This document shows positions 975-42,211 of a stretch of 64,000 nucleotides of DNA, piece after piece. This DNA comes from Prorocentrum cordatum (taxonomy: Eukaryota). Position 1 is the first letter of the stretch. The number at the start of each line of letters is the position of its first letter. Location: NCBI GenBank assembly GCA_963575745.1, contig CAUYUJ010000225.1, positions 1,054,001 through 1,118,000 of the forward strand, given 5' to 3'. A program made the translations under genes and the position numbers. Below the pieces are notes generated by a model. It made no database searches. It was not told where the DNA came from and saw nothing but the letters and a program-made list of their open reading frames with translations.

Positions 975-1126
975 AGTTGAGAATAGGAATGGGATGTAGG
1001 AGAGATCTTTTCCAGTACGTGTGAAACAAAGCTTGATTCTCTGACTCGAGCCTAATGGTTACGGTGAGGGCTGGCCGCAACGCGCGCGTAGCAGAGGTCA
1101 CCTGGCTGGGAATATACCTTTCGACT
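975..1126 (-). repeat. 3' LTR of element A
   Basis: Plus strand AGTTGAGAATAGG...CCTTTCGACT, identical by eye to 12416-12567. Confidence 0.97.
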
Positions 1127-1133
1127 CTGGTAC

Positions 1134-1143: not shown

Positions 1144-1263
1144 GTGGCTGTAAGCGCCACAGACACCACAGTTCCTTGGAAAATATCGCTGCGCTCTCTG
1201 TTCCAAAAACACAGCAAAGGAAAATGGCATCCAGCACTCAGAAAAGGAAGCTCCAGCCATCAC

Positions 1264-4200
1264 TCACATGTACCTCTGTTTCTTCTTCGGATGCATCGAC
1301 GGGTTGCTCCACGGAGCCCTCGTGGGGCACTCATTACCCCAATGGCCCAACTTGCCGCACACGCGGCACTGGCCCGGCTGCAGCGCCCCACTCGGCTTCG
1401 AACCGTCGCTGGGCGCAGGGCGCTTCGGCGCTGCGCGCGTGGCCCACGGGGACGCCGTTGGGCCAGGCGCGGCCTTCGGCGCTGCCGTCACCACTGGCCG
1501 GAGCGGCACCGATCCGCTCGTGGCCTGGCCGGCCTTCGGCGCAGCAGTCGGGCCAAGCGGGCCCAACCGGAGTGGGTCCGATCCACTCTCGGCGTCTACG
1601 CGCCTTGGCTGCGCCGGCCGAGACTTAGGCTGAGTCCCGACAAACTCCGGAGCTTGCTCCTGCTTCGCCGCTGCCCGTGCGCGGAGTCGGTTGTACAGCT
1701 CCCGGAGGTCGGTGTCGTGCTCGTTCTTCTTGTCGTCGACGTCGCGGTCGTACTTCCGCTTCTCCTCTTCGTGCCTCCAATGCCTGACGCGGTTGTTGGC
1801 TGGCTCGCCGTCCGTGTCGGAGTCGCACTCGCGCTTGAGGTCCGCCTCGTGCATGTGCTTCTGCCGCTTCTCCGGGTATTTCTCCACGAGCGCTGTCAAC
1901 CACGTGAACTCGTCGTCCCGGTACTTCCGCAGCAGACTGTCCAACCTCGATACATTGTCGGGGTTGAGCTTTTCGTAAGCGACGGTCATCACCTCGCGCC
2001 ACTCCCGTGCGCCAGGGCGCGGGGGCGTGTCCAAGCGCTTGGCGACGCGTACCACGCGACGCAGCGTCCATGGCTCCATGTCGTCGTCCTGCTCCTCCTT
2101 GGCGACGACGCGCGCGGGGTAGAAGAGCTGCACCTGCGGCCGGACTGTCGGGAACACCTTCACCTTGTCCTTCTGCACGATCTTCCACGCCCCCGTCCTG
2201 AGCGCTGTAAGGAGGGCGTCCCGGGCGACCTTGCCCTTCGTAAGGGCGTCTGCGAGCATGTCCCGGGTGTCGATCCAGCGCAACTCCCAGACGCGGCCTG
2301 CGAGCAAGTGCTGCTTGAGCGCCTTGATCTCGTAGAGCATCTGCTGCTCCGTGGGGCATTTCGTGCTCTCGTTCGCGATCGCTGCGAACACCGACATGGC
2401 ATCCACGTACAGCACGATCTTGATGTCGAACTCGCACGCCTCCAGCCGGCGACTCAATTCAGCTGCAGACGCGGTCCCGTAGAAGACCTCCTGGAAGAAG
2501 CCAGCCAGAAGCATGCCCTCCTCTGCGGCTTCGCTGAGATTGTGCATCTCTGCCGCGAACGTGCTCCTGCAAACCCGCGTCTGCTTCCGCGACCAGAAGT
2601 CGATCGCCAGGAAGCTGTCGTCCAAGGTGCCACCAAGGCCTGCGAGCAGACCCCGGAGAGCCAGACAGTCGGGATCAGCAGCCTTGAAGGCGCTATCCCC
2701 GGGAATTCTCAACACCGGCTCGCCCCTGATCCCGTGGTACTTGATGCAGCTCTTCTGCTTCTTGAGCCACTTCAGGAGCTTATTGAGGTCGTGCACGTCG
2801 CGGCAGCGAGGCGCCGTGTTGGCATCGCTGCACCTTTGCAGGTAGCCAACGAAGACCAAGCCATCGGCGCGGCACATTGTCACCCAGGCCACGCCACCGC
2901 GCAAGCTCATGAACTGCTGGTGGACGTCCTGGGGCACCTGTTCCTCCTCCTTGAGTGTCCCCAGAGCTGGGTGCACTATCGGGCGCAACTGGGACAAGTA
3001 GTGGTCCTGGCTGCACTCGATGTCGTGGTGGTTATGCGGGTTCTGTGTGTGCATGACACCGCAGCACTCGAAGATGCCGTACTTCCGGTCTTTGATCGGC
3101 CCAAACGCCCGCTCCAACACCTGAAGCAAGATCCTGTGATGCTTGCCGTCTGTGTGGTCGCAACCCTTGAGGTCGTCGACGTGGGCGGATACAGCCTGAA
3201 CCAATACTTTCTTTTTCGTGTTCTGGCCCGTCTCGTGCTTCGCGTACATCAGGGGCTGCGCCTGGGTAGGACGCAAGCCGGCCTCCCGCAGCACCTCGTC
3301 CAGCTTGAGGCTGAAAGCGCGTGGGGCCACAGTGGAGCCCATGACGGGCTTGTCTGGCTCCAATACCTCCAACACCGGGTCGAAGGACTCGAAGCCAGGA
3401 ATCTGCCTCAGCAGGGGCACCGTGCCCGGAGGCAGCTCCAACTGCATGTCCATCTCTGGCACCCCCGTCTTGTCGCTGAGCTCCTTGAAAGTGAGGCCCC
3501 GGAGAAACGCCTTAGGCACGTCCAACATCCACAACTGGTGGCCGTGAATGGCCGCCACTGCGGTCAGGGCTCGCTGTCCCCAGCGAGAGGCTGTCCCCGA
3601 GTACGTGTCCATCACGTCCTTGAGCCTGTCCTTGAAGCCCCGGGCCGTGAGCCGTGCTCGTACGGCACGCGCCTTGTCGATGATCTTCCACTTGACCACC
3701 CACCGCATGTCCGCGATGTTGCTGGCACCCTTCCTTGGGCGCCTCCTCATGTTGCACAGCTTGATCCACTCCTTGAGCTCGCTCAACATTGCTGCGTTCA
3801 CCTCGGGGCGGTGTTCCTGCATCTCCGCCGGAGACAGCAGAGGCAAGTCACGTTCAATGACTGCCTGTGGCTTTCTTGCTCCCGAAACCATCCACGCTGC
3901 CACGTGGCCGTCGGGAATACTGCTTACCCCGAGGCTGTCCATGAAGTGGTCCAAGAAGATGCCGTCGACCTCAAGGAGCGCCTTGTTCCGCTCCTCGTCG
4001 CTGTACGGCACGTGCTCGCCAATACCTGATGACACGAAGTACGTCGCATCCGGGGGAGATGCCATCGAAGCAACCATGTCCAGGTACTCGTCGCTCTTGT
4101 CCAATGGCAGGCTAGCGTAGTCCACCACGAAGTTTTCGGCGACCTCCCCGAACTCCTCAGAAGAGATGTCGTCATCATCGTCAACGTCTGTGCGAATGCC

Positions 4201-7200
4201 AGGGCCTGGCCGGGTAGACGTCACCGCATCTTGCTGCCTAGCGGCCTGCATCGGCGATGGGTTGCCGGAGCTACCTTCAGAGCGCTGCCGGACCTGTCCA
4301 CGAGGCGTCTCTGGCGCACTTGAGCCCATAGACTCCGGACTCGGCGTCGACGATGGCGTAGCATGTACAAGAGGAGGTGCGAGGGGAGCATCATGCCGTG
4401 CTGGAGGCGCTGGATTGGGGAACGTGCCGATGATGATGTTAGGCTCGTGGTCCTCCTGATGATGACCCTCCTGATGATCAATACTCGGTTCATCCATCAT
4501 GGACTGCTGCTTCATATGATCTAAAACCTGATCTTGTGTATCTGTGCTCATGATGAACTGCACGATGTTTTGCCTATTCCAATCGTTCCCCACTTCTTTG
4601 GTTAGATCCAGCTGCCTAGACGAAGGATGCTGTAACCAATGAGGTTCTCCCCGACGCCCAGTGACCCACCAGTAAATGATGGAAGGCCCTCCACAAGGAA
4701 GCGGCGTAAGATGCTTGACCCCTCTGGCAAGACGCACTGCACAGCAAGAGGTTAACCCGAACAAGTGTGAAGCCACACTGAAAGCTGCACGTGCGATCGC
4801 TGGGAATCGCCTCGTCGCTGTCGTCATCTTCCACATATCCGTTTTAACGTCGACCAAGAAACCCAAAGCGATAACTCCAGGATCCAGGGACTCCACGAAG
4901 TTGGACAGGGCCTCGAACGGGCTGCTGAATGCCTCGGCGTGGTGCTGGAGAAAGAAGGCACACCACAAGACGAGAGCCTTGCGTACGTCCTGGATTCGTG
5001 CCGTCATATGCCGGCCATGCCACTTAAAGCCGATCTGGCCCTCAGGGATGCCGGTGAGGTCGGTCACCACGCACGGGCCTCGCCATCCTGAGGTATCCTT
5101 GTTCGGCGGGTCCCTGAAGAAATCGATGCAATCGCCTACCTTCAAGTCCAGCTTCTCGCCGGCCTCGCGGGTCTTGGACTGCAAGCTCCGGCTAATCTTG
5201 TCCGCTGCCGTCGCCTGCGCGATGGTACTAACAGCTGCATGTCGAAGTCGTGCAACGTGTCGGCTAACACCAGCGGTGCCCTCGCTGTCGTCCTCCAGCT
5301 CGGTGGCACTCGCCGGCTCGAAGTTTAACAGAAGGTTCATTTGCCTGCCGAAGACGGCCTGGTACGGCGAGACGCCCTTGATGTTGGTCAGAACGTTCTT
5401 GGCCAAGAGCGCCTCCGCCAAGATGCACTCATTAGGGGCTGGGGTCCCGTCCTGAGTGAGCTGGTCCTTGATCAGGTGGAGCTGGTCCCTGAGCAGGGCG
5501 TTATGCCGCTCGACCATCTGAGCGTGGGCCGCCTTGGGCTTGAACACGAGGTTCGTGCCCCATCGGGACGCCCAGGCTCGGCCCTCGTCTGAATCGAGTG
5601 CCCCTTCATGATCAGACGTGATCCTCAGAGGTACTCCGAAGATCCGGAACCAGAGGTTCGTGATAGCCTCCAGGATCGTCGCGGTCTCCCTGTTGGGAAT
5701 CAGTCCTCCTGCAGCGAAGCGCACGCACTTGTCCAGGAGGTGGCACACAATCAAAGCCTCCCAGAACATGAGGTCGAACTGAATCTCCTCATTGAAGTGC
5801 GCGCAGATGGAGGCGCTACCAATCGACCTGGGAGCGACGTCCTGCCAACTACGGCAGATCCTACACGTATCTACGATGCCCTGGACTTGGTCGATGACGT
5901 GCGATGGCGCACCAGCCACCGTCAGAAGGTCACGAAGACGCTGAGCAGGACAGTGCCAGAGCCTGATGTGGATCTTCCGCAGCGTACGGCGGACCACACC
6001 AGGAGACTTGCTCAGCAGCAGGGGCAAGGCGCGCCCGAGGTCCCACTGAGACCATTCTTCGGGCAGACTGTCGGCCTGAGTTCCGATCTCAGCCTTCTGG
6101 ACCCTCGGGGCACGAGGAGCTCCAGGGGCAACAGGTGCAGGGGCACTGGCGGCGTCGCCAACTGCCGAAGGCTCAGGACCGCCTTCGGCGGGAGCCTCCT
6201 GCGCAGCCGCTAAGCGGCGGTGCTCTTCCTCTGCAGCTTGATCTGCCTCCTCCTCAGCTCCTAAGTTCGGCGCGGCCTTCATCGTAGACGTGGGATCCTC
6301 GCTGGCCCGGATGCGGCCGTCACGAGGATGTGCTCCAAGTCGCGGATTGCCGCGGCGCTCCGGAGCTCCACTCCACCGACAACGATCGTCCAGAAGATGG
6401 GACTCGTGGTGACGAGGTTTACCGGCCATGCAGCCCGGGCACTGGGTACCCCAGGGGGCAACGTCAGCCCATCGGCAGACACCTGGGACACGAGTGTGCC
6501 TCGGATCCAGCATGCTCACGTTCTTCCCACATGCCTTGCAGATGTCCTTGGCCGGGACACCAGCGCCGGCGACGCCCGGCATGCTCCCAGACGAGCCGCC
6601 AGACGATGTCGGGTAGTGACTCGTAATGGTGTCCACGTAGGTGTCCCTGATCACGTCGGCGATGCCTGCGGCGATGGTGGAAGCCAGCTTCCACGTCCAG
6701 ATCTGGTCAGGACCTGGAAGGCCACCTGTAGTAGTGACGTGCTCGTGGTCCCCATTGCATCGTAGTTGCCGAAGACGCCAGATCAGCCGCTCGTCGCTGG
6801 CTACGAACTCGGTCGGCTTCTGGATCAAGTGGTGTGGAGGTCGTTGATCCCGTAGTCCAGTCATGCACTGATGCATTGAGCAACGCACCACGGCAGGATG
6901 AGCCAACACATCCGGCCACGGAAACACCCTGTTGAGGCTAGTGCCCAAAAAATGCTCTCGAATGAAGTGTCGTTGCGAAAGAAGCTGATGGACAGCGACG
7001 TCTCCACAAAGCCGGCCAAACTTCTGACTGATCTTCCGCGGCGGCGCCATAACGATAACTAAGGGCTTCGCCGCGCGGATGTATCGCCACATGGCCGTCA
7101 CGTCGTCGTCGTTCATCAAGTCGCAGTTCGTCGCAAAATCTAGGTTCGCCCCTGCACGAAAACCGTGCCGAAACCTGCGGCGAACCAAGCACTGGGTAGT

Positions 7201-10200
7201 GCGACCCTCGCCGCCCAGGATCTCCATGATGTCCACGTGTTCATTGTCGTTTTGCTGCGTGTGGAAGTCCATGAGCATGGCGTCGAAGGAGAAAAAATGA
7301 GCTGCGTCTGGGGCCCGAGAGTGGAAAAAAGAACGGCCAAAGAGCCACCACGTCGGGTCCACCATGTCCGCGATGTCTTGCTCCTCCTGGTCGACAAGGG
7401 CCCGGTCAAGATACTGCACATGGTACTCGGATATTCGCTCCTCGTTCCAGTAGTCCTTGCCGTCAACGGTGATGCTGCCGAAGTCCTCGCCGCAGTCGTC
7501 GAAGTGCTGCTCTGCCTCTGGGCGAGGCTTGCGTGTCCTCGCTGCCTTGATGCCCTTTTCCGCCGCGAACTTTTTCTTCATGTCCCACTGTTCCTTTTGT
7601 CGCTCGCGAGCGTCCGTCGGGAAAGCCTCCCGAATCTGATCCAGGCTATCGTCGTTAACGTCGGACTCGTCGATCGTGGTTGTAACTCGTGTTTTCGACT
7701 CTGGTACGTCTCCTTGTTCCTTGCTGCGATATGACCCAGGGCGGCCAGAGGCGGCCCGGAAGCTCGGAAGAAGGGTCCGAACAAAGTTCACGATGAATCC
7801 GATGAGCATCATGATGTCCTTCGAATTGCGAGTCCGGCCAGTCGTCGACGATGGCGGCGGCGAGGTGCACTTGCAGACCGACCGGTCTGGCAAGGGAAAC
7901 GATGACAAAACCAACGTGTTCCGATGAATGGGCGTGTTGGTGTCCAGGTCCACCACGCCATAGTTGCACCATAAATGCTGGGAGTGGTGGAGTCGCTTGT
8001 CGGACCTCATCGCCATAACGCCGGGCAGATCCCACGCATAGTCGCGCAGGTTGCCCTCGATCAAGACGTGCCGTCCTTGATCCAACTGCGTGTTGATCAG
8101 CGTCAGCATCGATCGGCTCTGTCGCTCGTCGTGTCGGTCTCCACGTGGTGTTTTGCACCCCGTGAGCCGCATCCAGAGCAAGTCAGGCTCCTGGCTGCGG
8201 ATGTCCATGAGCTGGTATCTGAGATGATCGTGACTGTAGTTCCTGCGCATCTGCACGTTGTGGGTGCGAAGGCGTTCGTCGCGCAGGGCACTCTGTCGAA
8301 TGCCGTTTTCGTCGTCGTAGAGATAAACGAGATAAGATTCTGATGCAGATGAGTGTAAATGTAAATTTGGATTCGATGTCGAATTCTGGAGGCCCTTCGT
8401 CTGCTCGGTCGTGGCGTGCCCATCGTAGTGTCGATGTCCTGCTCGTAACGGTTCTCGGCTGCCTGGTGAGGCCTCGGCCCTGCCTCCGGTCCTGTGCGGG
8501 CTTTCGGCAGCACTGCCTCGAGAGAATCCGCCAGCTCCACGCCGAGCGACGGCCGGCTCCGCATTGCCGGAAGGCCTCATCATGCACGGAGTCGGGAGTT
8601 CGCGGGCGTCGTCGAATCGAACCTGCTTGCTCGCGCCTGGTGGGGCGCCGGCCCTGCCTTCGGCCCTGTGCGGACCTCCAACAGCATTGCCTGAGCACGC
8701 AGGGGCGGCCGAGACGCCAGTGCAAGGTGTCGTCGGTGAAGTCGTCATTTGTCCCCCCTGCACAACGGGGAACTGACTCGTCGACTGTTGCTGCTGTATG
8801 TGCTCTGTGTTTTTGGGTGTGGGTGTTGAGATCGAATCGAACTCCGTGATTGGCAGAAGAAGGTGTCCGCTCTCAGTCTTCTCCAAGTTTAAGGTTAAGC
8901 TGCCTGGGGGCAGCTTGATCTCGTAATCACCAGATCCCAAGAAATAAAGCTTCTGCCCGGAGATGTCGATGAGTGCTCGTCGTTGTTCCAAGGTTTTCAT
9001 TCCCAGTAGTGCTGGAACGTCGGAGTTGGGGATGACAGGGCTCTGGTACGTGCCCGTGTCGCCGGTCTCCAAGATCATGGGCACGAGAGCCTTCGCGTTG
9101 CAGTCCTGGGGCCCGGCTCCGACCCCTTCCACGGTCAAGGAACGATCCATGTTCATCTCATCGACGTCCATGTTGTGTTTCTTGAGGATGGCCTGGACGC
9201 GGCGGACCCAGGCGTCTCCAGTCAGATTGTCGTGAGCGCCTGGGTCGATGAGGAGGCCCTCGCGGTCCGGCCCCTTCAGGCGGGCCCTCGAGTGCCAATA
9301 CTCAGCCTCACCACCACCGCCGTTCATGCTCATGTCAAGCTCAACCATGCGTGGGCCCCAGGGATAGTGGAGTTGAGGTGCTCGTGGTCGTAGGATGTTG
9401 CTGATGGCGTGCATTTGCTGCGTGCGGTCCTCGTGATCGTCGTGGCCGCGATTAGGTCGTCGCCGTTGGGGTTGATCATGCTGTGGTGGTGGCTGCGGCG
9501 CGAACCCCGCGCCAGGAGCTGGACAACCAGCTAACGACAGACCTGGTACCAATCCAGGCTGATTAAGCCCTACACCTGGTACCAATCCAGGCTGATTAAC
9601 ACCTACACCTGGCACCAATCCAGGCTGATTAACACCTGCACCTGGTACCCATCCAGGCTGATGGTCAACCAGCGGCCCTGGTGCCGATCCAGGGCGTTGC
9701 CACGATTGAGCCACCGTGGCTAGAGATGCAGGTGCCGATCCTGCAGGCGCCGCAGGGACCAATCCTGCGAAGCCGTGGCCTATGGGTGGCCTTGACGCTG
9801 GTGCCAATCCAGCCGTCCCTTGAGCGAGAAGTGGCCTAGATGGGGATGGTGACGATCCAATCATTGGGATACCATGGCCCAGATATGATGTGGATTCTGA
9901 CGCCGGTGCCGATCCGGCCATCATCTGGGAGGCGGAATAGGCGGCAGCCTGCGGAGTAACAACGCTGGATGCAAGGGTGCCTGGTGCCGGCTCCAATCCG
10001 GCATCGCCTCTCTGTGCCAGGGTCTCGCCGCCAGTCCCGCCAGGTGTCATCTCACTCTGCCTCGCGCCAGCAGGTGCCATATCACTCGTCGCGCCGGCAG
10101 GTGTCATATCACTCGTCGCGCCGGCAGGTGTGATATCACTCCTCATCCTCGTCCTCGCATCCTCTGCCTGAAGGGGAGGTTGAGGAGGAGTGATGTGTGA

Positions 10201-10824
10201 CAGATTTTGAATGATGGATGACAGATTCTGGCATTTAGCCAAACACGGAGTGAATGCTGGAGCCGATCCAGACATTCCGCTTGGCGCTGGTACCGATCCA
10301 GCTGGCCACTGAGCTCCGGGCTCAAAGGCTGGGGCCAATCCAGCCGTAGCAGGGCTGCCAGGAGCAGCCGCGATGTTCTCGACCATCGCTAAGCATCCTG
10401 GTGGCTGTGGCTGCGGCGCGGCCGCCGCTGGGCCTCCCCAGGGATCTCCGCGGACCCACGGGTCCTCGCCGTCGGAATGGGCAGCTTTTCCGTGATCCAG
10501 CCTGCAAGCTACGGCCTGCGGCCTCCCGCGCCTGTCGTCCCAGTCAACCTCGTAGGTCACCTCCGCGCCGGCGGAGAGCGAGGGGCCCGTGACATTCGAC
10601 GCGTGGATGAAGATGTCCTTGCCGCCGTCGCTCGGGACAATGATGCCCCAGCGCTCCTTGTCGTTGTACTTCTTGACGCGGCCGCGCGCTCGCGCACACG
10701 CGCTCGCGCAGGGGCTCGGCGTCGGTGGCGCCCGCTGTCCTGCAGCTGGAGCGGCTGCTGCTGGCCAGGAAATGTGGCTGGCTGGCCAACAAGTCCCCAG
10801 GAGGGCGAAGATTGCTGCATCTGG
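1264..10824 (-). CDS. pol: Pol-type polyprotein frame of element A: cold-shock domain, protease, two DNMT-like modules, Zn fingers, integrase, RT, RNase H, CCHC
   Basis: The ORF track gives 3098 aa from GTG at 10560, but the frame stays open up to a TAG at 10827-10825. Motifs: LLIDPGAHDNL...ALLGM (PR); HIRLWH...CRIC with DLMF/SDHEG/VERHN (IN); RARLTARGF, LDVPKAFL, HVDD (RT); GDSAF, STFAAE, YVDA, ADALTK (RH). Confidence 0.95.
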   Translation of the reverse strand, partial: PDAAIFALLGTCWPASHISWPAAAAPAAGQRAPPTPSPCASACARARGRVKKYNDKERWGIIVPSDGGKDIFIHASNVTGPSLSAGAEVTYEVDWDDRRGRPQAVACRLDHGKAAHSDGEDPWVRGDPWGGPAAAAPQPQPPGCLAMVENIAAAPGSPATAGLAPAFEPGAQWPAGSVPAPSGMSGSAPAFTPCLAKCQNLSSIIQNLSHITPPQPPLQAEDARTRMRSDITPAGATSDMTPAGATSDMAPAGARQSEMTPGGTGGETLAQRGDAGLEPAPGTLASSVVTPQAAAYSASQMMAGSAPASESTSYLGHGIPMIGSSPSPSRPLLAQGTAGLAPASRPPIGHGFAGLVPAAPAGSAPASLATVAQSWQRPGSAPGPLVDHQPGWVPGAGVNQPGLVPGVGVNQPGLVPGVGLNQPGLVPGLSLAGCPAPGAGFAPQPPPQHDQPQRRRPNRGHDDHEDRTQQMHAISNILRPRAPQLHYPWGPRMVELDMSMNGGGGEAEYWHSRARLKGPDREGLLIDPGAHDNLTGDAWVRRVQAILKKHNMDVDEMNMDRSLTVEGVGAGPQDCNAKALVPMILETGDTGTYQSPVIPNSDVPALLGMKTLEQRRALIDISGQKLYFLGSGDYEIKLPPGSLTLNLEKTESGHLLLPITEFDSISTPTPKNTEHIQQQQSTSQFPVVQGGQMTTSPTTPCTGVSAAPACSGNAVGGPHRAEGRAGAPPGASKQVRFDDARELPTPCMMRPSGNAEPAVARRGAGGFSRGSAAESPHRTGGRAEASPGSREPLRAGHRHYDGHATTEQTKGLQNSTSNPNLHLHSSASESYLVYLYDDENGIRQSALRDERLRTHNVQMRRNYSHDHLRYQLMDIRSQEPDLLWMRLTGCKTPRGDRHDERQSRSMLTLINTQLDQGRHVLIEGNLRDYAWDLPGVMAMRSDKRLHHSQHLWCNYGVVDLDTNTPIHRNTLVLSSFPLPDRSVCKCTSPPPSSTTGRTRNSKDIMMLIGFIVNFVRTLLPSFRAASGRPGSYRSKEQGDVPESKTRVTTTIDESDVNDDSLDQIREAFPTDARERQKEQWDMKKKFAAEKGIKAARTRKPRPEAEQHFDDCGEDFGSITVDGKDYWNEERISEYHVQYLDRALVDQEEQDIADMVDPTWWLFGRSFFHSRAPDAAHFFSFDAMLMDFHTQQNDNEHVDIMEILGGEGRTTQCLVRRRFRHGFRAGANLDFATNCDLMNDDDVTAMWRYIRAAKPLVIVMAPPRKISQKFGRLCGDVAVHQLLSQRHFIREHFLGTSLNRVFPWPDVLAHPAVVRCSMHQCMTGLRDQRPPHHLIQKPTEFVASDERLIWRLRQLRCNGDHEHVTTTGGLPGPDQIWTWKLASTIAAGIADVIRDTYVDTITSHYPTSSGGSSGSMPGVAGAGVPAKDICKACGKNVSMLDPRHTRVPGVCRWADVAPWGTQCPGCMAGKPRHHESHLLDDRCRWSGAPERRGNPRLGAHPRDGRIRASEDPTSTMKAAPNLGAEEEADQAAEEEHRRLAAAQEAPAEGGPEPSAVGDAASAPAPVAPGAPRAPRVQKAEIGTQADSLPEEWSQWDLGRALPLLLSKSPGVVRRTLRKIHIRLWHCPAQRLRDLLTVAGAPSHVIDQVQGIVDTCRICRSWQDVAPRSIGSASICAHFNEEIQFDLMFWEALIVCHLLDKCVRFAAGGLIPNRETATILEAITNLWFRIFGVPLRITSDHEGALDSDEGRAWASRWGTNLVFKPKAAHAQMVERHNALLRDQLHLIKDQLTQDGTPAPNECILAEALLAKNVLTNIKGVSPYQAVFGRQMNLLLNFEPASATELEDDSEGTAGVSRHVARLRHAAVSTIAQATAADKISRSLQSKTREAGEKLDLKVGDCIDFFRDPPNKDTSGWRGPCVVTDLTGIPEGQIGFKWHGRHMTARIQDVRKALVLWCAFFLQHHAEAFSSPFEALSNFVESLDPGVIALGFLVDVKTDMWKMTTATRRFPAIARAAFSVASHLFGLTSCCAVRLARGVKHLTPLPCGGPSIIYWWVTGRRGEPHWLQHPSSRQLDLTKEVGNDWNRQNIVQFIMSTDTQDQVLDHMKQQSMMDEPSIDHQEGHHQEDHEPNIIIGTFPNPAPPARHDAPLAPPLVHATPSSTPSPESMGSSAPETPRGQVRQRSEGSSGNPSPMQAARQQDAVTSTRPGPGIRTDVDDDDDISSEEFGEVAENFVVDYASLPLDKSDEYLDMVASMASPPDATYFVSSGIGEHVPYSDEERNKALLEVDGIFLDHFMDSLGVSSIPDGHVAAWMVSGARKPQAVIERDLPLLSPAEMQEHRPEVNAAMLSELKEWIKLCNMRRRPRKGASNIADMRWVVKWKIIDKARAVRARLTARGFKDRLKDVMDTYSGTASRWGQRALTAVAAIHGHQLWMLDVPKAFLRGLTFKELSDKTGVPEMDMQLELPPGTVPLLRQIPGFESFDPVLEVLEPDKPVMGSTVAPRAFSLKLDEVLREAGLRPTQAQPLMYAKHETGQNTKKKVLVQAVSAHVDDLKGCDHTDGKHHRILLQVLERAFGPIKDRKYGIFECCGVMHTQNPHNHHDIECSQDHYLSQLRPIVHPALGTLKEEEQVPQDVHQQFMSLRGGVAWVTMCRADGLVFVGYLQRCSDANTAPRCRDVHDLNKLLKWLKKQKSCIKYHGIRGEPVLRIPGDSAFKAADPDCLALRGLLAGLGGTLDDSFLAIDFWSRKQTRVCRSTFAAEMHNLSEAAEEGMLLAGFFQEVFYGTASAAELSRRLEACEFDIKIVLYVDAMSVFAAIANESTKCPTEQQMLYEIKALKQHLLAGRVWELRWIDTRDMLADALTKGKVARDALLTALRTGAWKIVQKDKVKVFPTVRPQVQLFYPARVVAKEEQDDDMEPWTLRRVVRVAKRLDTPPRPGAREWREVMTVAYEKLNPDNVSRLDSLLRKYRDDEFTWLTALVEKYPEKRQKHMHEADLKRECDSDTDGEPANNRVRHWRHEEEKRKYDRDVDDKKNEHDTDLRELYNRLRARAAAKQEQAPEFVGTQPKSRPAQPRRVDAESGSDPLRLGPLGPTAAPKAGQATSGSVPLRPVVTAAPKAAPGPTASPWATRAAPKRPAPSDGSKPSGALQPGQCRVCGKLGHWGNECPTRAPWSNPSMHPKKKQRYM
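1328..1369 (-). other. C-terminal CCHC zinc knuckle of Pol
   Basis: CRVCGKLGHWGNEC fits CX2CX4HX4C. Confidence 0.9.
2230..2720 (-). other. RNase H domain (copia type)
   Basis: IPGDSAFK...WSRKQTRVCRSTFAAE...LYVDAMSVF...WIDTRDMLADALTK. Confidence 0.9.
2950..3810 (-). other. Reverse transcriptase domain (copia type)
   Basis: AMLSEL...RWVVKWK...RARLTARGF...LDVPKAFL...KPVMGSTVAPRAF...HVDD. Confidence 0.92.
4960..5985 (-). other. Integrase (HHCC plus DDE)
   Basis: LRKIHIRLWHC...CRICRSW; FNEEIQFDLMF; FGVPLRITSDHEG; AQMVERHN. Confidence 0.92.
6370..6540 (-). other. Two tandem CX2C-X10-H-X5/6-C putative zinc fingers
   Basis: CKACGKNVSMLDPRHTRVPGVCRW and CPGCMAGKPRHHESHLLDDRCRW; a homologous pair is present in element C. 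Confidence 0.7.
6650..7240 (-). other. C5 DNA-methyltransferase-like domain 2 (catalytic Cys absent in this copy)
   Basis: Motif I-like DIMEILGGEG, motif IV-like KPLVIVMAPP, motif VI-like HFIREH, then HQCMTG, KPTEF and CNGDHEH. Confidence 0.75.
7860..8340 (-). other. Highly diverged DNMT-like domain 1
   Basis: EPDLLWMRL...QLDQGRHVLIEGN..YAW...WCNYG...P...TLVLSS...CKC follows the motif order of domain 2 and is mirrored in element C. Confidence 0.5.
8850..9270 (-). other. Retroviral-type aspartic protease
   Basis: GLLIDPGAHDNL (D-x-G), VEGVGAG flap, VPALLGMKTL, HLLLPI. Confidence 0.85.
9541..9660 (-). repeat. In-frame 33-bp tandem repeat (about 4 copies, NQPGLVPGVGV)
   Basis: ACCTGGTACCAATCCAGGCTGATT recurs with a 33-nt period. 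Confidence 0.9.
10040..10140 (-). repeat. In-frame 27-bp tandem repeat (SDMTPAGAT, 3-4 copies)
   Basis: GCGCCGGCAGGTGTCATATCACTCGTC is repeated. Confidence 0.88.
10504..10683 (-). other. Cold-shock domain (CSD) in the pol frame
   Basis: Manual translation: GRVKKYNDKERWGIIVPSDGGKDIFIHASNVTGPSLSAGAEVTYEVDWDDRRGRPQAVAC, with RNP1-like RWGII, RNP2-like DIFIH and the C-terminal GRPQA strand. Confidence 0.92.
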
Positions 10825-12320
10825 CTATTCACAACCATGTGCTGCGCCTGCGTGAAGAACATGCCAAGGCTCGTGGTCGCCACTGGCTGGTGGTAGCCGC
10901 AGGCGCCCATGAACTGGCGCGCCGCGCAGCCTTCCGCCACACCACCAGAAATCATCCTCTGGATCTGCTGCGTCTGGTCCGTCTGGGGCGCGGCCGGCGC
11001 GGCACCGTCCGCGTAGTGGAACCGCGGGCGCTTCGGGCAGTGCGCCACCAAGTGTTCGTCGGAACCACACTGGTGGCATGTCAGAACCTTGCCGTCCTTT
11101 CCCGTGGGGTTCTTCTTGCCCCGGCCTTTCGCCTTGCCACCGAAGTAGGCCGAGTTGGAGCCAGCAGAACTGTGGTAGATGCCACCATGCTTGCCGAAAC
11201 CAAGGCCTTTGCCGGACTTGCCCTTTCCGGGCTGCTTGCCCCAAGACCGGCTCTTGCCCGAACCCTTGCGGGCAGGGCGTCGCGAGGCCCTCGCGTGCTT
11301 GCCCGTGAAGTGCCTCCACTTTCGGCGCGCAAGCACGTATGCTTGATGAAGCTCGTTGGCCTTCTGGTTGCTGTAATCCTGCTGGTCGTGGTCTGGTGGC
11401 GGCCCTTCCTCTGAGGTGGCGCTCGACGAGCCGTCGTCGTCTTCGTCGTATACGTACATGCCGCACGCCTCGCACTCCATGCCTGGGTGCGCGTCTGGCC
11501 AGCCGGTACCTGATCCGGCCATGGCCGGAGCAGCCGCGGCAGAACACGGGAAGAATCCGCCCGAAGCCGCGGCCCCTTGGGGAACGGACGGAGCACCGCC
11601 CCCCGGCTCGGCGAAGAAGCTCCCAAGGCCTCCGTCCGCGAAGTGCGCGCCCTGCTGGGGTGACTGGTTCATCACGCCCTCAAGCAAGTGGCCCTGGCGG
11701 CGGAGGTGTTCTTCCATCTGGATGAGCTCCTGTTCCTGCGTCGGCATGTTGCCGCCGAACGGCTGCAGCAGCAGCGTCCACATCTGTGGAGACACGTGGA
11801 GTGCCCGCAACAAATGGTATGCTGTGCCTGTAGGTCCAAGGTTCAAGTTGGCCTCCTCGTTCGCCCTGAACCGGGCCGTGGCGTAGCGGCACAGCGCAGC
11901 GTCGATCGTCTCGCCGCTCATACGCTGAAAGCCAAGATACGCTTGAGCTGCCTGTACGTTCTGCTCGTAGCCAAGCGGCAAGAACTTCTGAGACATCACA
12001 TATAGCACAATCGTCAAACCGGTCTGCATGACAGGGCCCCGGCCGTCCATCATGTCGATGGGGCCACCATTGGCCAAAACGTTCACGTCGATGGCCCGGA
12101 GGATATCGCGGACCGTGCCCGTCTGCTGTAGCACGACCGCCGGCGCCTGCTGGTTGATCGGGAGGTCTGTGACCATCGACCACAGCATCACATCTTGTAC
12201 CCATTTGCGGAAAGGGTACGTGGACGCCGTCCCCGGGTCCCATCTTGGAGGCACCTTCAGGCTGGTGCTGCCGTACACCGTCCCCGAAGGAGCAGCTGCA
12301 GTCGGCGGTGGTGCCGACAT
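10557..12320 (-). CDS. gag: Gag of element A with a CCHC knuckle
   Basis: 587-aa ORF just after the PBS; KVPPRWDP..YPFRKWVQDVMLW N-terminus, K/G-rich tract, and CHQCGSDEHLVAHC at about 11036-11078. Confidence 0.9.
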   Translation of the reverse strand: MSAPPPTAAAPSGTVYGSTSLKVPPRWDPGTASTYPFRKWVQDVMLWSMVTDLPINQQAPAVVLQQTGTVRDILRAIDVNVLANGGPIDMMDGRGPVMQTGLTIVLYVMSQKFLPLGYEQNVQAAQAYLGFQRMSGETIDAALCRYATARFRANEEANLNLGPTGTAYHLLRALHVSPQMWTLLLQPFGGNMPTQEQELIQMEEHLRRQGHLLEGVMNQSPQQGAHFADGGLGSFFAEPGGGAPSVPQGAAASGGFFPCSAAAAPAMAGSGTGWPDAHPGMECEACGMYVYDEDDDGSSSATSEEGPPPDHDQQDYSNQKANELHQAYVLARRKWRHFTGKHARASRRPARKGSGKSRSWGKQPGKGKSGKGLGFGKHGGIYHSSAGSNSAYFGGKAKGRGKKNPTGKDGKVLTCHQCGSDEHLVAHCPKRPRFHYADGAAPAAPQTDQTQQIQRMISGGVAEGCAARQFMGACGYHQPVATTSLGMFFTQAQHMVVNSQMQQSSPSWGLVGQPATFPGQQQPLQLQDSGRHRRRAPARARVRERAAASRSTTTRSAGASLSRATAARTSSSTRRMSRAPRSPPARR

Positions 12321-12396
12321 GTTGTTCTGCGGAGTGGCTGTACAGTGGTGCTCGCACGAAGGCGAGCGGTAGCGTCCAAGAAGCGAAGGATCTTAG

Positions 12397-12414
12397 TCCC
12401 CCGCTCCGCTACCA
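12397..12414 (-). promoter_or_regulatory. Primer-binding site (probably initiator tRNA-Met)
   Basis: Minus strand TGGTAGCGGAGCGGGGG starts 1 nt after the 5' LTR and is complementary to a tRNA ending CTCCGCTACCA. Confidence 0.85.
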
Positions 12415-12415
12415 A

Positions 12416-12567
12416 AGTTGAGAATAGGAATGGGATGTAGGAGAGATCTTTTCCAGTACGTGTGAAACAAAGCTTGATTCTCTGACTCGAGCCTAATGGT
12501 TACGGTGAGGGCTGGCCGCAACGCGCGCGTAGCAGAGGTCACCTGGCTGGGAATATACCTTTCGACT
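12416..12567 (-). repeat. 5' LTR of element A
   Basis: Identical to 975-1126 and followed by the PBS on the minus strand. Confidence 0.97.
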
Positions 12568-13061
12568 CACGCGCGCGGCGGGGGGGCCCACGGGAACACC
12601 TCGCCAATGTTCAGCAGGACGCCCGACGGGAGCTCGATCCTGGCCGGCGCCTCCGCGAGCGTCTGCCCGCGAGCCTCCATCGCAGCCCTGCACTCCTCCG
12701 CCAGCTCCACCAGCCGATTCAGCGTGAGCCTCTCTCTGAAGCCGTAGAGCTTACGGTCTCCCGCGGGAGGAGCGGCGCCGGCTGCCGGGCGCTCACCGCC
12801 AGAGGGGCCGTCGGCCGGGGAGGCTCCAGAGAGAAGCTCCTCCCACAGGTCCCCGTCCGGCGAGAGCACCCAGTACAGGTGCGAGTCGACAACCTCCCCG
12901 TCCTCCTCGCGCCTCGACGGCCAAACGACGACCCGCTCGTGATCCACGAGGTCGCCGAGGTAGCTCACCTTGGCGCGAGCCCCGCAGGGCAGGTCAGCGC
13001 ACCACGCCTCCCCCGCGGGCAACGGGGGCAGGGGTGCCCGGCGCCCGCGGCGGCCCAGCAT
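12568..13061 (-). pseudogene. 5' part of the gag-like ORF disrupted by element A
   Basis: VSYLGDLVDHERVVVWP...YWVLSPDGDLWEE...LYGFRE ends at the TSD and continues at 974 if one base is added in the C7 run. Confidence 0.5.
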
Positions 13062-13816: not shown

Positions 13817-16800
13817 CCATCTCCTCCTCCTCCTCCTCCTTGTCCTCCACCTCCTCTTCATCCCGAACGGCATCTCGGAGCCCAGAGTTGCGAGGATGTC
13901 TCCAGAGTAACGGGCTGGACCACCTCGCGCGCGGCATCTCGGACCCCAGAGTTGCGACGATGTCTCGGGCGAAACGTGCTGCGAGGAAGTCTCAGGCGAA
14001 ACGTGCCGGACAACCTCGAGCGCGGCGTCTCAGAGCTCCCAGTTGCGGGGGCCTCCTGGGGCCTCCTGGGGACCTCCTGGGGCTTCCTCCTGGGCCTCCT
14101 GAGGCCTCCTGGACCCCACCTGGGGCTTCCTGAAGCCTCGTGGGCTCCCAGGGGGGGATATCTAACAGGTGGGCCTCTGGGCCCCCCAAAATGCGGGGGG
14201 GGGGGGGGGGCACAAGAGCAGGAAAAATCAACGAATCGACACCGGATGTGCATTGACTTGACACGTTCTGATAGGGGGCCTCCTGGGGCCTCCCTGGAGC
14301 CTCCTGGGATCTCCTGGGGACCCCTGGGGCCTGTCCTAGGCGTCCTGCGGCCTCCTGAAGCTCTCTGGCGCCTCCTGGGGCTCCAGGGTCCCAGGGGGGA
14401 TATGTAAGATGTGGTCTTCTGGGCCCCCAGGCTGGACCGCCTCTTGCGCGGCAGCTCAGAGCTCAGAATTGCGCGAATGTCTTGTGCGAAACGGGCCGGA
14501 CCACCTTGCGCACGGCATCTCAGAGCTCAGAGTTGCGAGGATGTCTCAGGCGAGACGGGCTGGACCACCTCGCGCAGGGCATCTCAGAGATCAGAGTTGC
14601 GAGGATGTCTCAGGCGAAACGGGCCGGACCACCTCTCGCGCGGCATCTCAGAGTTCAGAGTGTCGAGGATGTCTCAGGCGAAACGGGCCAGACCAACTCG
14701 CGCGCGGCATCTCAGAGCTGAGAGTTTCGAGGACATCTCAGACGAAACGTGCTGGACCACCTCGCGCAAGGCATCTCAGAGCTCAGAATTTCGAAGGTGT
14801 CTCAGGCGAAGAGACCCGGACCACCTCTCGCGTGGAGTCTCAGAGCCCAGAATTTCGAGGATGTCTCAAGCGAAAAACAGGCCGGACCACCTCTCGCGCG
14901 GCATCTCAGAGCTCAGAGTGTCGAGGATGTCTCAGGCGAAATGGGCTGGACTACCTCTTGCGCGGCAGCTCAGAACTCAGAGCTTCAAGGATGTCTCAAG
15001 CGAAACGGGCCGGACTACCTCGCAAGCGGCATCTCGGAGCCCAGAATTGTGAGGATGTCTCATGCGAAACGGGCCAGACCACCTCTCGCACGGCATCTCG
15101 GGGCTCAGAGTTTCGAGGATGTCTCAGGCGAAACGGGCCGAACCACCTCGCAAGCGTCATCTCGGAGCCCAGAGTTGCGAGGATGTCTCAGGCGAAACGG
15201 GCCGGACCACCTCTTGCACGGCACCTCGGGGCTCAGAGTTTCGAGGATGTCTCAAGCGAAACGGCCCGGACCACCTCTCGCGCTGCGTCCCGGAGCGCAA
15301 TTTGTCGAGGATGTCTCAGGCGAAACGGCCAATCCCGGCCAACTCAGAAACGCGAGTCGTGAGGATGTCTCAAGCGAAACGGCCCGGAACATAAGATTTG
15401 TGTGAGGATGTCTCTGCTCCCCTTTCCCTCGGCCGGAGTTAGCTCCTATCACAACAGCACCCCGTTCAGCAAGCCGTTTGGGGAAAAATCGTGACGTCGG
15501 ATGTCTGGGGAGGGCGGAAGGCAGTGCGCGCATAACGGATGCTGAGGCGGAAGAAACGACGACGGCGGGGACGGGGAGGCGGAGGCAGAGGCGCAGCAGC
15601 GGGAGGAGGGAGGCGGGAGGAGGGAGGGAAGAGGAGCCAGGCGGGAAGTGGGAAGCGGGAGGCGGGAGAAGGAATGAGAGAGGTTGTGATTGGAGCCCCT
15701 GTGCCACGAAACGTCTCAGGCAGAACAGGCCAGACCATCTCGCGCGCAACATCTTCGAGCCTCGCATTGCGAGGATGGCTCAATCGAAACGGGCCGGACC
15801 ACCTCGCGAGCGACATCTTGGAGCTCAGTATTGGAAGGATGTCTCAAACGAAACGGGCCGGACAATCTCTCGCACACGTTCTGACAAGTCCACGTCGCAC
15901 TCGCTTCCCGTCCTCTCCTGCAATGCCTGCTCCCTCATGCACATCATCCGTCACCATCCTCCTCCTCCTCCTCCTCCTCCTCCTCCTCTTCATCCCGAAC
16001 GGCATCTCGGAGCCTAGAGTTGCGAGGATGTCTCCAGCGTAACGGGCTGGACCACCTCGCGCGCGGCATCTCGGACCCCAGAGTTGCGACGATGTCTCGG
16101 GCGAAACGTGCAAGAGCAGGAAAAATCAACGAATCGACACCTGATGTGAATTAACTTGACACGTTCTGATAGGGGGCCTCCTGGGGCCTCCTGGGAGCCT
16201 CCTGGGAATCTCCTGGGGACCCCTGGGGCCTGTCCTAGGCGTCCTGCGGCCACCTGGAGGAGCTCTCTGGGGCCTCCTGGGGCTCCCAGGGTCCCAGGGA
16301 GGATATGTAACATGTGGTCTTCTGGGCCCTCAAGTTGGACCATTTTTTGCGCGGCATCTGGGAGCTCAGAGTTGCGAGAATGTCTTGTGCGAAACAGGCC
16401 GGACCACCTTGCGCACGGCACTCAGAGCTCAGAGTTGCGAGGATGTCTTAGGCGACGGGCTGGACCACCTCGCGCAGGGCATCTCAGAGCTCAGAAGTTC
16501 GAGGATGTCTCAGGCGGGCTCCCAGGGTCCCAGGGAGGATATGTCTTCTGGGCCCCCAGGCTGGACCACCTCTTGCGCGGCATCTGGGAGCTCAGAGTTG
16601 CGAGAATGTCTTGTGCGGAACAGGCCGGACCACCTTGCGCACGGCATCTCAGAGCTCAGAGTTGCGAGGATGTCTCAGGCGAGACGGGCTGGACCACCTC
16701 GCGCAGGGCATCTCAGAGCTCAGAAGTTCGAGGATGTCTCAGGCGAAACGGGCCGGACCACCTCTCGCGCGGCATCTCAGAGTTCAGAGTTTCGAGGATG

Positions 16801-17168
16801 TCTCAGGCGAAACGGGCCGAACCACCTCGCAAGCGTCATCTCAAAGTTCAGAGTTTCGAGGATGTCTCAGGCGAAACGGCCCGGACCACCTCTCGCACGG
16901 CGCCTCGGGGCTCAGAGTTTCGAGGATGTCTCAAGCGAAACGGCCTGGACCACCTCTCGCGCGGCGTCCCGGAGCGCAACTTTTCGAGGATGTCTCGGGC
17001 GAAACGGCCTGTCCCGGCCAACTCAGAAACAAGAGTTGTGAGGATGTCTCAAGCGAAACGGCCCGGACCATCAAATTTTGTGAGGATGTCTCTGCTTCCC
17101 CTTCCCTCGGCCGGAGTTAGCTTCTATCACAACAGCACCCCGTTCAGCAAGCTGTTTGGGGAAAAATG
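13817..17168. repeat. Duplicated block (about 13817-15489 and 15954-17168), each copy containing a 64-bp satellite array
   Basis: GAGGATGTCTCAGGCGAAACGGGCCGGACCACCTC unit at 14537, 14601, 14665 and onward. Both blocks share the start ((CCT)n-CTTCATCCCGAACGG) and the end (GTTTGGGGAAAAAT). Confidence 0.9.

Positions 17169-42180: not shown

Positions 42181-42211
<31 letters not shown>

Follow-up and report, generated by a model that had tools for sequence, protein, structure and literature searches.

Our analysis suggests that a family of LTR retrotransposons of the copia order has acquired a cold-shock domain (CSD) of the dinoflagellate type in the linker between Gag and protease, that this domain may act as a nucleic acid chaperone, and that the recently inserted member of the family in the DNA analysed here, a stretch of 64,000 nucleotides from Prorocentrum cordatum (the window), is a derived copy. 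We give this reading as a whole a probability of roughly 0.6.

Results

The CSD is encoded on the minus strand, and the translation from 10683 to 10504 runs from GRVKKYNDKERWG to GRPQAVAC. The original prediction had read a complete CSD from these letters, to be checked by a Pfam search, and both the translation and the domain hold. PF00313, which has a curated gathering cutoff of 27 bits, matches residues 47-105 of the 3186-aa pol-frame translation (37.8 bits, E 1.7e-9) in an alignment that covers profile positions 2-61 of 66, while the isolated 80-aa piece scores 45.3 bits (E 8.1e-12). Among the sequences of the PDB, 29 distinct chains with a CSD matched at E<=0.01, the best being CspC (1.4e-8). 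In the AlphaFold2 model of the domain (mean pLDDT 82), there are five strands (8-17, 22-27, 34-37, 51-59 and 64-72), and the predicted fold is a five-stranded antiparallel beta-barrel of the OB type. Foldseek gave 63 PDB matches to the model at E<=0.001; the model superposes on CspC with a TM score of 0.85 by target and an rmsd of 1.5 A, and also on CspA and the CSDs of CRHSP-24, AtGRP2, UNR, YB-1 and Lin28. Because the Pfam, PDB sequence and superposition results all point to a CSD, the match is far beyond chance.

CSDs have an established ability to bind ssRNA and ssDNA, and their RNP1 and RNP2 motifs expose aromatic and His side chains for stacking on bases. In the alignment with CspC, the segment that we take to be RNP2 reads VFVHF in CspC and IFIHA in the element, while the presumed RNP1 reads KGFGFI in CspC and is altered to ERWGII in the element. 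At the seven aromatic/His positions that we assume to make up the nucleic acid-binding surface of CspC, four residues are kept (Y, W, F and H) and three are replaced (K, I and A).

The domain is harbored by an 11.6-kb LTR retrotransposon of the Ty1/copia order that spans 975-12568 (Table 1). In sequence comparisons, the identity of the two LTRs ends exactly at both ends of the repeat, and a 5-bp target-site duplication flanks the element. The element is young and recently inserted. The LTR termini read AG...CT; LTR termini are usually TG...CA. Just inside the 3' LTR there is a short purine run (1134-1143), and the TGG at the start of the primer-binding-site-like sequence would fit pairing with the CCA end of a tRNA; no tRNA gene for comparison is present within the 64-kb window.

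Table 1. Features of the CSD-bearing retrotransposon, in window positions and ordered along the element strand
Feature	Position	Strand	Remarks
5' LTR, 153 bp	12416..12568	-	100% identical to 975-1127; CACGC adjoins at 12569-12573
Primer-binding-site-like sequence	12397..12415	-	directly inside 5' LTR; T then TGGTAGCGGAGCGGGG on element strand
gag reading frame, this copy	10557..12320	-	ATG 12320-12318, stop 10559-10557
Gag CCHC zinc knuckle, CX2CX4HX4C	11037..11078	-	pattern CHQCGSDEHLVAHC read from sequence
pol-frame ORF, this copy	1264..10824	-	3186 codons, no internal stops
Extra base, 1 nt, first frame break	10735..10735	-	relative to sibling copies
Extra bases, 10 nt, second frame break	10683..10692	-	relative to sibling copies
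Cold-shock domain, 60 codons	10504..10683	-	Pfam, PDB sequence matches, model and Foldseek
Linker, A/P/G-rich, low complexity, ~410 codons	9265..10503	-	between CSD and protease
Aspartic protease region	8725..9264	-	motif LLIDPGAHD at 9229-9255
Integrase region	5155..6057	-	H..H / C..C motif at 5845-5970
Reverse transcriptase, copia type RVT_2	3169..3711	-	PF07727
Second CCHC zinc knuckle	1327..1368	-	extreme C-terminus of polyprotein
3' LTR, 153 bp	975..1127	-	CACGC adjoins at 970-974

Along the pol-frame translation, the protease motif (residue 524), the integrase H..H/C..C motif (1619-1660) and RVT_2 (2372-2552) lie in the order PR-INT-RT, i.e. with integrase upstream of reverse transcriptase. 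The protease is assigned by its position and D-x-G motif, as the pol-frame translation has no Pfam protease match; among the 150 best representatives, 142 are matched in their protease region by residues ~503-670 of the pol query. The integrase assignment is supported by PF00665, precomputed on the relatives P0006 and P0018; a second element in the window is similar to this one in the integrase region. PF07727 matches the reverse transcriptase with an E value of 1.7e-6 and 28.3 bits, which is under the cutoff of 31.6, while relatives at ~30% identity exceed this cutoff. The Gag knuckle was not reported by Pfam at E<=0.01, and the knuckle at the C-terminus scores 21.6 bits with PF00098 (cutoff 20.8) when the C-terminal 486 aa are searched. 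The linker between CSD and protease is made up of 15% A, 15% P and 13% G.

In the window copy, 118 codons separate the Gag knuckle from the CSD, and about 416 codons lie between the CSD end and the protease motif, in agreement with the original prediction, which had put the domain about 120 codons past the knuckle and before the protease. The prediction had also ascribed the CSD to an upstream extension of the pol frame. This is true of the window copy, in which the pol frame, lying at -1 relative to gag, has 47 open codons before the CSD, overlaps the gag frame by 268 nt and contains no ATG upstream of the CSD. It is not true of the sibling copies, in which this overlap is absent and, in P0186, P0187 and the main X1 contig, the CSD is in frame with Gag. 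The difference lies in the two insertions listed in Table 1. The base at 10735 is absent from the sole X1 contig that covers it (depth 7.51 of 7.51), and its deletion in silico reproduces the P0187 peptide; the 10-nt stretch is missing from the X1 contig that accounts for 7.51 of the total depth of 10.5. With both removed, the copy reads as a single open frame of 3681 codons, in which P0187 occurs exactly. The 10-nt insertion is probably a slipped duplication, because it resembles sequence a few bases upstream, while the single base could be an assembly error. From one insertion to the other, the path of ancestral coding follows the third frame. Because the insertions shift gag out of frame, the 47 pol-frame codons before the CSD are not part of this path, and the last ~58 codons of the gag frame are an out-of-frame reading of the junction and CSD DNA. 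It is this separation of gag from CSD-pol by two small insertions that made the domain appear hidden and causes it to be missed in annotation. The slippery heptamer X_XXY_YYZ does not occur in the gag frame between 10860 and 10557. As read from its sequence, the window copy is a derived variant that would be unable to read from Gag into the CSD.

Among the other copies, P0186 (1644 aa, from an ENA contig) has the arrangement M-Gag-CCHC-CSD-linker-PR in a single frame, a Pfam CSD score of 35.7 bits, and an N-terminus that shares the MSAPPPTAAAPSG start with the window gag. P0187 (144 aa, from EukProt) spans the junction, scores 40.5 bits and is identical to the window CSD over the 57 residues covered. 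The main X1 contig lacks both insertions and also has the CSD in frame with Gag. As this CSD follows Gag in frame in all three, it is part of the element rather than of a neighboring gene. The CSD is present in contigs of two runs (X1 and X2), in which only two variants fall inside it, one synonymous and one replacement (G86C). The similarity in gag among the CSD-bearing records is ~90% or higher; one near-identical record is labelled Pyramimonas in EukProt.

Rather than being absent or degenerate in these copies, the CSD is their best-kept segment. In a comparison with P0186 as the one diverged protein, the other records being near-identical and the time depth therefore shallow, 58 of the 60 residues are identical (96.7%) without gaps, compared to 93.5% identity in gag and 86% in the protease. 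The flanking linkers are the least conserved part, with 62% and 80% identity and 47 gap columns, and the 62% segment, with 30 of these columns, directly adjoins the CSD. If the CSD had diverged at the mean rate of the remaining aligned part of pol, at most two changes in 60 would occur with a probability of 5e-4, and at the linker rate with one of 9e-7; compared to gag alone, its conservation is not significantly higher (P = 0.24).

As to the source of the domain, the window CSD scores 62.6 bits against a profile of host-type repeats, built from 216 CSD repeats of 62 multi-CSD proteins that were collected with the element CSD as probe, against 45.3 bits for the general Pfam profile. The CSD is 37-45% identical to the host repeats and agrees with them in loop lengths except for one gap of a single residue, and a W-D...P signature at the C-terminus is common to both. 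All named members of the multi-CSD family are from dinoflagellates (Symbiodinium, Effrenium, Prorocentrum and Amphidinium). These multi-CSD/RRM proteins (P0041, P0062, P0108, P0190 and others) have the same CSD subtype as the element; however, they are cellular proteins with 4-5 tandem CSDs, usually with an RRM, and an RNP1 that reads RGMGFI, whereas the element has a single CSD, no RRM and the altered ERWGII. The host-type repeats, too, deviate in their RNP motifs. Because the CSD fits the dinoflagellate repeats better than the general profile, its capture from a host gene, as originally proposed, is likely, judged by profile scores and motifs. Dinoflagellate CSD proteins are described in PMC11453091 as reportedly preferring RNA and single strands without sequence specificity.

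A CSD was found in none of 38 related elements that span the interval from CCHC to protease and in none of 33 long relatives. Because none of these 38 has one, the CSD is dispensable for the wider lineage. By contrast, a RING finger lies between CCHC and protease in 6 of the 15 relatives scanned. Dinoflagellate Ty1/copia-like elements share the RVT_2-type reverse transcriptase and very long polyproteins with the window element, at ~30% identity to its pol, but none has a CSD and several have a RING finger in the Gag-protease slot. Among them, SmTCL of Symbiodinium microadriaticum (PMC5776459) and the 'RE1' proteins of Symbiodinium sp. CCMP2592 also have LTRs and the order PR-INT-RT-RH; the description of SmTCL in PMC5776459 covers reverse transcriptase, integrase, RNase H and LTRs.

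Discussion

In the model that we favor, the family acquired a CSD of the dinoflagellate multi-CSD/RRM type in the linker that joins the zinc knuckle of Gag to the protease. A normal member of the family would consist of one frame with the order Gag - CCHC - CSD - disordered linker - PR - INT - RT/RH - CCHC. Because this is a single reading frame, every Gag made would carry the CSD about 116 residues past the knuckle. From the known binding of CSDs to ssRNA and ssDNA and the pairing with a CCHC knuckle, we infer that the CSD has a nucleic acid chaperone or nucleocapsid role. Together with the knuckle, it would most likely form a second module for single-strand binding and chaperoning that aids packaging of the element RNA, annealing of the tRNA primer and strand transfers, with the two domains cooperating as they do in Lin28 and plant cold-shock proteins. 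The window copy would probably make a truncated Gag without the CSD, and may either have transposed with proteins from intact sister copies or have gained the extra bases during or after insertion.

The same anatomy could serve a different purpose, with the CSD manipulating host processes rather than chaperoning the nucleic acids of the element. It might imitate the host CSD proteins, which are abundant, or compete with them, and in this way affect translation or stability of the element mRNA or evasion of silencing, or it might direct the pre-integration complex towards unwound or single-stranded stretches of DNA in the nucleosome-poor chromatin of dinoflagellates. The host type of the CSD and the divergence of its RNP1 from the canonical motif would fit such a purpose, as would the RING finger in the slot of sister lineages, which is a host-interaction module rather than a nucleic acid chaperone, and the CSDs of bird endogenous retroviruses, which were captured multiple times at varying positions and have no nucleocapsid role assigned in the account given in PMC12287698. 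However, retroelements have their nucleocapsid-like functions in the slot that follows the Gag knuckle and precedes the protease, four of the seven aromatic/His positions of the binding surface are retained, and direct evidence for host manipulation is lacking; we consider it unlikely. We also doubt strongly that the CSD is a functionless passenger, i.e. a fragment of a host CSD gene recently copied into the Gag-protease linker of one young family. Such a fragment could explain why the domain is confined to one family whose records are so alike in gag, why the linker around it tolerates large indels and why the window copy lost frame continuity despite identical LTRs, but not readily why a complete and confidently modelled fold is the best-conserved segment next to the worst-conserved one.

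Two further explanations concern the window copy itself. The pol frame at -1, the long overlap and the open codons before the CSD are what a programmed -1 ribosomal frameshift would look like, in which case the CSD would be made only on a minority Gag-Pol product. We find this very improbable: the overlap has no X_XXY_YYZ heptamer, the offset results from insertions that are absent in P0186, P0187 and the main X1 contig, the open pol-frame stretch before the CSD is not ancestral coding sequence, and the 1-nt insertion, which is in no X1 contig, could be an assembly error. A chance resemblance or assembly artefact without a real CSD has nothing in its favor except that the GC-rich sequence keeps many frames open by chance, and it is refuted by the Pfam E value of 8e-12, the PDB matches, the structure model and the recovery of the domain from two independent protein records as well as from contigs of two runs.

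The combination of CSD and knuckle has cellular analogues. Lin28 and plant cold-shock proteins (AtGRP2) likewise combine a CSD and CX2CX4HX4C knuckles in one polypeptide, and both modules bind single-stranded nucleic acid. However, the CSD comes first in these proteins, while in the element it lies 116 residues after the knuckle; they have two to seven nearby knuckles as opposed to one; and they are small dedicated RNA-binding proteins, while the element pair sits in a polyprotein of 3681 codons. Thus, the resemblance is one of architectural analogy and not of membership. Precedents for LTR lineages fixing a host-derived domain are the chromodomain of the chromoviruses (Ty3/gypsy) and the methyltransferases captured by retrotransposons, which differ in the domain, in its position (integrase C-terminus or separate pol parts) and in the presumed role (integration targeting or methylation). 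We found no earlier report in the literature of a CSD as an accessory module in copia-type elements. The closest case is that of bird endogenous retroviruses, for which 46 ERVs with CSDs, captured several times, are described (Mol Biol Evol 2025, PMC12287698); as presented there, the authors read these captures as adaptive and assign no nucleocapsid role. Like the window element, these are reverse-transcribing elements with PF00313 as a host-derived extra domain, but they belong to vertebrate retroviruses of the ERV-A/B and ERV-G groups and have the CSD at varying positions (PMC12287698), whereas in this protist element of the Ty1/copia order the CSD is fixed in frame between Gag knuckle and protease and is kept between copies.

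More tentatively, and with less confidence than even odds, we suggest that the Gag-protease linker of this dinoflagellate copia lineage is a modular docking slot that sublineages fill with different host-derived effectors, a CSD here and a RING finger in relatives. The CSD would then be a working second nucleocapsid module, and the family a natural experiment in the recruitment of cellular RNA chaperones by retroelements, convergent with the CSD captures of bird retroviruses and the CSD plus CCHC design of Lin28.

For nucleic acid chaperoning, LTR retrotransposons are generally considered to depend on the zinc knuckle of Gag or on disordered tails rich in basic residues. A conserved in-frame CSD beside the knuckle would represent a new route to nucleocapsid function in these elements. 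It would also be the second independent case, after bird ERVs, in which a reverse-transcribing element recruited the CSD fold, and it could, therefore, be argued that CSDs offer retroelements a general advantage. Finally, a slot in dinoflagellate copia elements that exchanges host domains such as CSD and RING would bear on how new protein architectures arise in the very large, repeat-rich genomes of dinoflagellates.

Results

Architecture of the element

The ends of the direct repeats and the CACGC pentamers on both flanks delimit an LTR retrotransposon of 11,594 bp, which lies on the minus strand. Its pol frame encodes, in this order, a cold-shock domain (CSD), a linker, protease, integrase, an RVT_2 reverse transcriptase and a terminal CCHC knuckle. 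Because the integrase lies upstream of an RVT_2-type reverse transcriptase, the element has the Ty1/copia order. tRNA genes that might pair with the primer binding site (PBS)-like sequence were sought in the window and none was found. The LTRs are short for an 11.6-kb element and, on the element strand, start with AG and end with CT in place of the usual TG...CA. The second canonical CCHC knuckle, at the very C-terminal end of the polyprotein behind RNase H and a charged tail of ~280 residues, is in an unusual location for a copia-type element. Between protease and integrase, ~900 residues match no Pfam family at E≤0.1; within them, pol residues 1294-1477 share 26% identity with the window's second copia-like element and, thus, part of this region is a conserved but unnamed module. 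The large tandem-repeat arrays that directly adjoin the element give rise to spurious long open frames on both strands.

Features of the element and of the surrounding window
Feature	Position	Strand	Basis or remark
Direct repeats (LTRs), 153 bp	975-1127 and 12416-12568	-	100% identical; identity ends exactly at both ends
Target duplication, 5 bp	adjoining LTRs		CACGC on both flanks; flanking pentamers equal
PBS-like sequence, TGG start	directly inside 5' LTR	-	sequence reading
Purine run, short	just inside 3' LTR	-	sequence reading
gag frame	ATG 12320 to stop 10557	-	contains knuckle
Gag CCHC knuckle, CX2CX4HX4C	11037-11078	-	motif
pol frame, 3186 codons	10824 to 1264	-	open reading frame
CSD	10504-10683	-	PF00313
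Linker, A/P/G-rich, ~410 residues	after CSD, before protease	-	composition
Protease motif	pol residue 524	-	motif
Integrase H..H/C..C motif	pol residues 1619-1660	-	motif
RVT_2 reverse transcriptase	pol residues 2372-2552	-	E 1.7e-6, 28.3 bits, just below cutoff
C-terminal CCHC knuckle	1327-1368	-	PF00098, 21.6 bits (cutoff 20.8)
Protease-to-integrase region	6025-8724	-	
Copia-like element	52125-58125	-	RVT_2 present; split across several frames; 26-40% identical to main element in pol; no CSD
Copia-like element	41659-46727	+	RVT_2 at 43814-44959; no CSD
64-nt tandem-repeat arrays	13845-17001		30 copies, 60-100% identity, two blocks
RING-bearing relatives P0088, P0175, P0007, P0019, P0010, P0011	not in window		zf-RING_2

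The element encodes a complete CSD

The original prediction had placed a complete CSD between the Gag knuckle and the protease. Translation of the minus strand from 10683 to 10504 gives the 60 residues it had quoted, and the Pfam search bears it out: PF00313 (cutoff 27) matches residues 47-105 of the pol-frame translation with 37.8 bits (E 1.7e-9), and the 80-aa piece taken by itself scores 45.3 bits (E 8.1e-12); the match covers profile positions 2-61 of 66. In the PDB, 29 different CSD chains match by sequence at E≤0.01, and the best of them is CspC (1.4e-8). An AlphaFold2 model, computed from a ten-row alignment of the element CSD with nine dinoflagellate CSD repeats, has five strands in the canonical order and a mean pLDDT of 82. 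In Foldseek, this model gave 63 matches with E≤0.001, headed by CspC (TM 0.85 by target length, rmsd 1.5 Å) and followed by CspA, CspE, CRHSP-24, AtGRP2, UNR, YB-1 and the Lin28 CSDs. Aligned with CspC, the domain keeps four of the seven aromatic or histidine surface positions and has lost three; its RNP1 is altered and reads ERWGII.

Gag and the CSD share one frame in the family

In the window copy, gag and pol overlap by 268 nt, with pol read at -1 relative to gag; the CSD starts within this overlap, and no ATG precedes it in the pol frame. Logan contigs of the sequencing run X1 cover all 30 bins of the element (80 contigs, 34 of them at least 99% alike); a second run, X2, covers the element except for 12 of the 30 bins, and statements on X2 hold for the covered parts. 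At 10735, the sole covering X1 contig has one base fewer (depth 7.51 of 7.51), and the same contig has ten bases fewer at 10683 (depth 7.51 of 10.5); a second X1 contig, at a depth of about 3, does contain the ten-base stretch. Deletion of both stretches in silico fuses gag with the CSD frame and leaves 3681 codons uninterrupted between gag ATG and pol stop; removing the insertions in silico also showed that either one singly disrupts the frame.

Two independent protein records have the junction in a single frame. P0186, 1644 aa long and taken from an ENA contig of 6341 nt, runs from the initial methionine through Gag, knuckle, CSD, linker, protease and beyond within a single frame. P0187 (144 aa, EukProt) lies letter for letter inside the simulated single frame, and mapped on the window its first 73 residues fall in the gag frame, the next 14 in the third frame and the last 57 in the pol frame. 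From these records and the main X1 contig it follows that the family normally has a single Gag-CSD-Pol frame, of which the window copy is a derived form. Similar sequence lies a few bases upstream of the ten-base insertion, as would be expected of a slipped duplication. The extra base at 10735, unsupported by X1 contigs, could be an assembly error. A programmed -1 frameshift in the window copy is disfavored because the X_XXY_YYZ slippery heptamer, sought across the gag/pol overlap of this copy, is missing and the gag/pol offset arose by insertions.

The pol frame had been described as extending upstream into the CSD. This part of the original prediction does not hold for the normal form of the element: the siblings run from Gag into the CSD in frame, and the 47 codons open in the pol frame ahead of the CSD were rejected as coding since their frame is non-ancestral. 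A match of the protein P0041 to query residues 23-46 was discounted on account of this frame and of low-complexity sequence.

Other variants were seen around the junction. In the window copy, the gag frame reads through the out-of-frame junction and CSD DNA (10557-10735, minus strand) into an arginine-rich tail of ~58 residues before its stop. An X1 contig (depth 3.3) that links 10844 to 11342, omitting 497 nt with five other letters between, is a deletion derivative of the element without the Gag knuckle region. In runs X3 and X4 (organism B), near-identical contigs of ~240 nt at 10244-10491 end short of the CSD, and the other matches are 20-40 nt long and of low complexity.

The CSD is conserved as well as gag

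Conservation across element copies had been proposed as a check, and the two other records keep the CSD: P0186 differs at two residues, P0187 matches throughout its 57 CSD residues, and both exceed the Pfam cutoff (35.7 and 40.5 bits, respectively). If the CSD changed as fast as the linker, at most two changes in 60 residues would have a probability of 9e-7. The corresponding values are 5e-4 for the mean divergence of the remaining aligned part of pol, 0.017 for the protease together with the residues that follow it, and 0.24 for gag. Thus, on the basis of a single ~90% relative (P0186) and near-identical records, conservation of the CSD equals that of gag and far exceeds that of the adjoining sequence. 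X1 and X2 have two CSD variants in common, the synonymous P81 and the replacement G86C, which do not suffice for a rate test. In the linker at 10420, shortly after the CSD, a depth-3 X1 contig has a 6-nt in-frame insertion (CTCGCC), which agrees with the linker's tolerance of indels.

Identity of the element to its sibling P0186 by segment
Segment	Identical residues	Identity	Gap columns
gag	501/536	93.5%	8
CSD	58/60	96.7%	0
Linker residues 108-300	111/178	62%	30
Linker residues 301-520	176/220	80%	17
Protease region	155/180	86%	0
Next 200 residues after protease region	181/200	90.5%	0
Residues 901-1150	199/230	86.5%	20

Relatives lack the CSD and some carry a RING finger in its place

A HMMER search with the first 760 pol-frame residues against 1.84 billion representatives gave 2244 hits at E≤0.001. 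Among the best 150, 142 have the protease region, eight have four to five CSD repeats and none has both. An in-frame CCHC knuckle upstream of the protease is present in 38 of the 142, which therefore span the whole slot; knuckle and protease are 49-218 residues apart in 34 of these and 397-446 in four, compared with about 610 in P0186. Pfam found a CSD in none of the 38, and phmmer found none in 33 long relatives from the protein collection (about 25-38% identity; best E 0.42), of which those named are dinoflagellate polyproteins from Prorocentrum cordatum, Symbiodinium sp. CCMP2592, S. kawagutii and Amphidinium carterae. Given these absences and that from the two other copia-like elements of the window, the CSD is a lineage-specific acquisition. 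A metagenome contig scan with P0186 gave 15 pattern matches, none of which was confirmed by tblastn.

In six of 15 relatives scanned, a RING finger (zf-RING_2, 32-35.7 bits, cutoff 27.3) lies between knuckle and protease; the RING-bearing proteins are relatives of two labelled 'RE1' from Symbiodinium sp. CCMP2592. The same Gag-protease slot has been filled differently by different sublineages.

The CSD resembles dinoflagellate multi-CSD proteins

The CSD-only hits of the HMMER search are multi-CSD proteins, the majority with an RRM. A search with P0041 gave 60 relatives at E≤1e-10, the named ones from Symbiodinium sp. CCMP2592, Effrenium voratum, Prorocentrum cordatum and two MMETSP dinoflagellate transcriptomes; the review PMC11453091 assigns MMETSP0689 to Amphidinium and describes CSD proteins as ubiquitous in dinoflagellates, where they bind RNA and single strands with no sequence specificity. 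A profile of 216 repeats from 62 such proteins, gathered with the element's own CSD as probe, scores the window CSD at 62.6 bits, versus 45.3 for the general Pfam profile, and the P0186 CSD at 60.3. In the ten-row alignment, the element CSD is 37-45% identical to the nine repeats with one single-residue gap and retains most repeat-invariant positions, including the C-terminal W-D...P signature, while deviating at W16Y, G21R, F24I and R38A. The proposed capture of a host CSD is supported in so far as the repeat-profile score and the W-D...P signature speak for a host-type domain; this support comes from sequence similarity. The element's host is probably a dinoflagellate. P0187 is labelled in EukProt as Pyramimonas sp., a green alga, while the named relatives of the element and of this CSD type are all dinoflagellates; the label may reflect contamination, mislabelling or a different host.

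Discussion

In its standard form, the family encodes a complete CSD fold 116 residues past the Gag knuckle and in frame with Gag, so that the CSD would be made in the same amount as Gag. In retroelements, the nucleocapsid function is located where the CSD sits here. We infer that the CSD most likely functions as a second single-strand-binding and chaperone module beside the Gag knuckle, and such a module could serve in RNA packaging, primer annealing and strand transfer. Nucleic-acid binding by the element CSD is plausible, although not assured, from its sequence. Lin28 and plant cold-shock proteins likewise pair a CSD with CCHC knuckles, but the element has them in the reversed order.

Two other explanations have to be weighed. 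The CSD could have a host-directed role, either by mimicry of the abundant host CSD proteins or in single-stranded DNA targeting; the RING finger that relatives carry in this slot hints at such a role. Alternatively, the CSD could be a neutral passenger domain, a rival reading to be set beside the conservation of the domain relative to P0186. The module beside the Gag knuckle remains our preferred reading.

In a full-text literature search, which covered few subscription journals, no account of a dinoflagellate or copia-type retrotransposon with a CSD was found. For Symbiodinium copia-like elements, passages of PMC5776459 list RT, integrase, RNase H and LTRs alone. In birds, a 2025 study (PMC12287698) reports 46 endogenous retroviruses with CSDs that were captured several times and, thus, provides a precedent for capture of this domain by a reverse-transcribing element. 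However, the element described here belongs to another element class in another host kingdom. Moreover, its CSD occupies a defined and conserved site adjoining the Gag knuckle, in a slot that is occupied by RING fingers in sister lineages.
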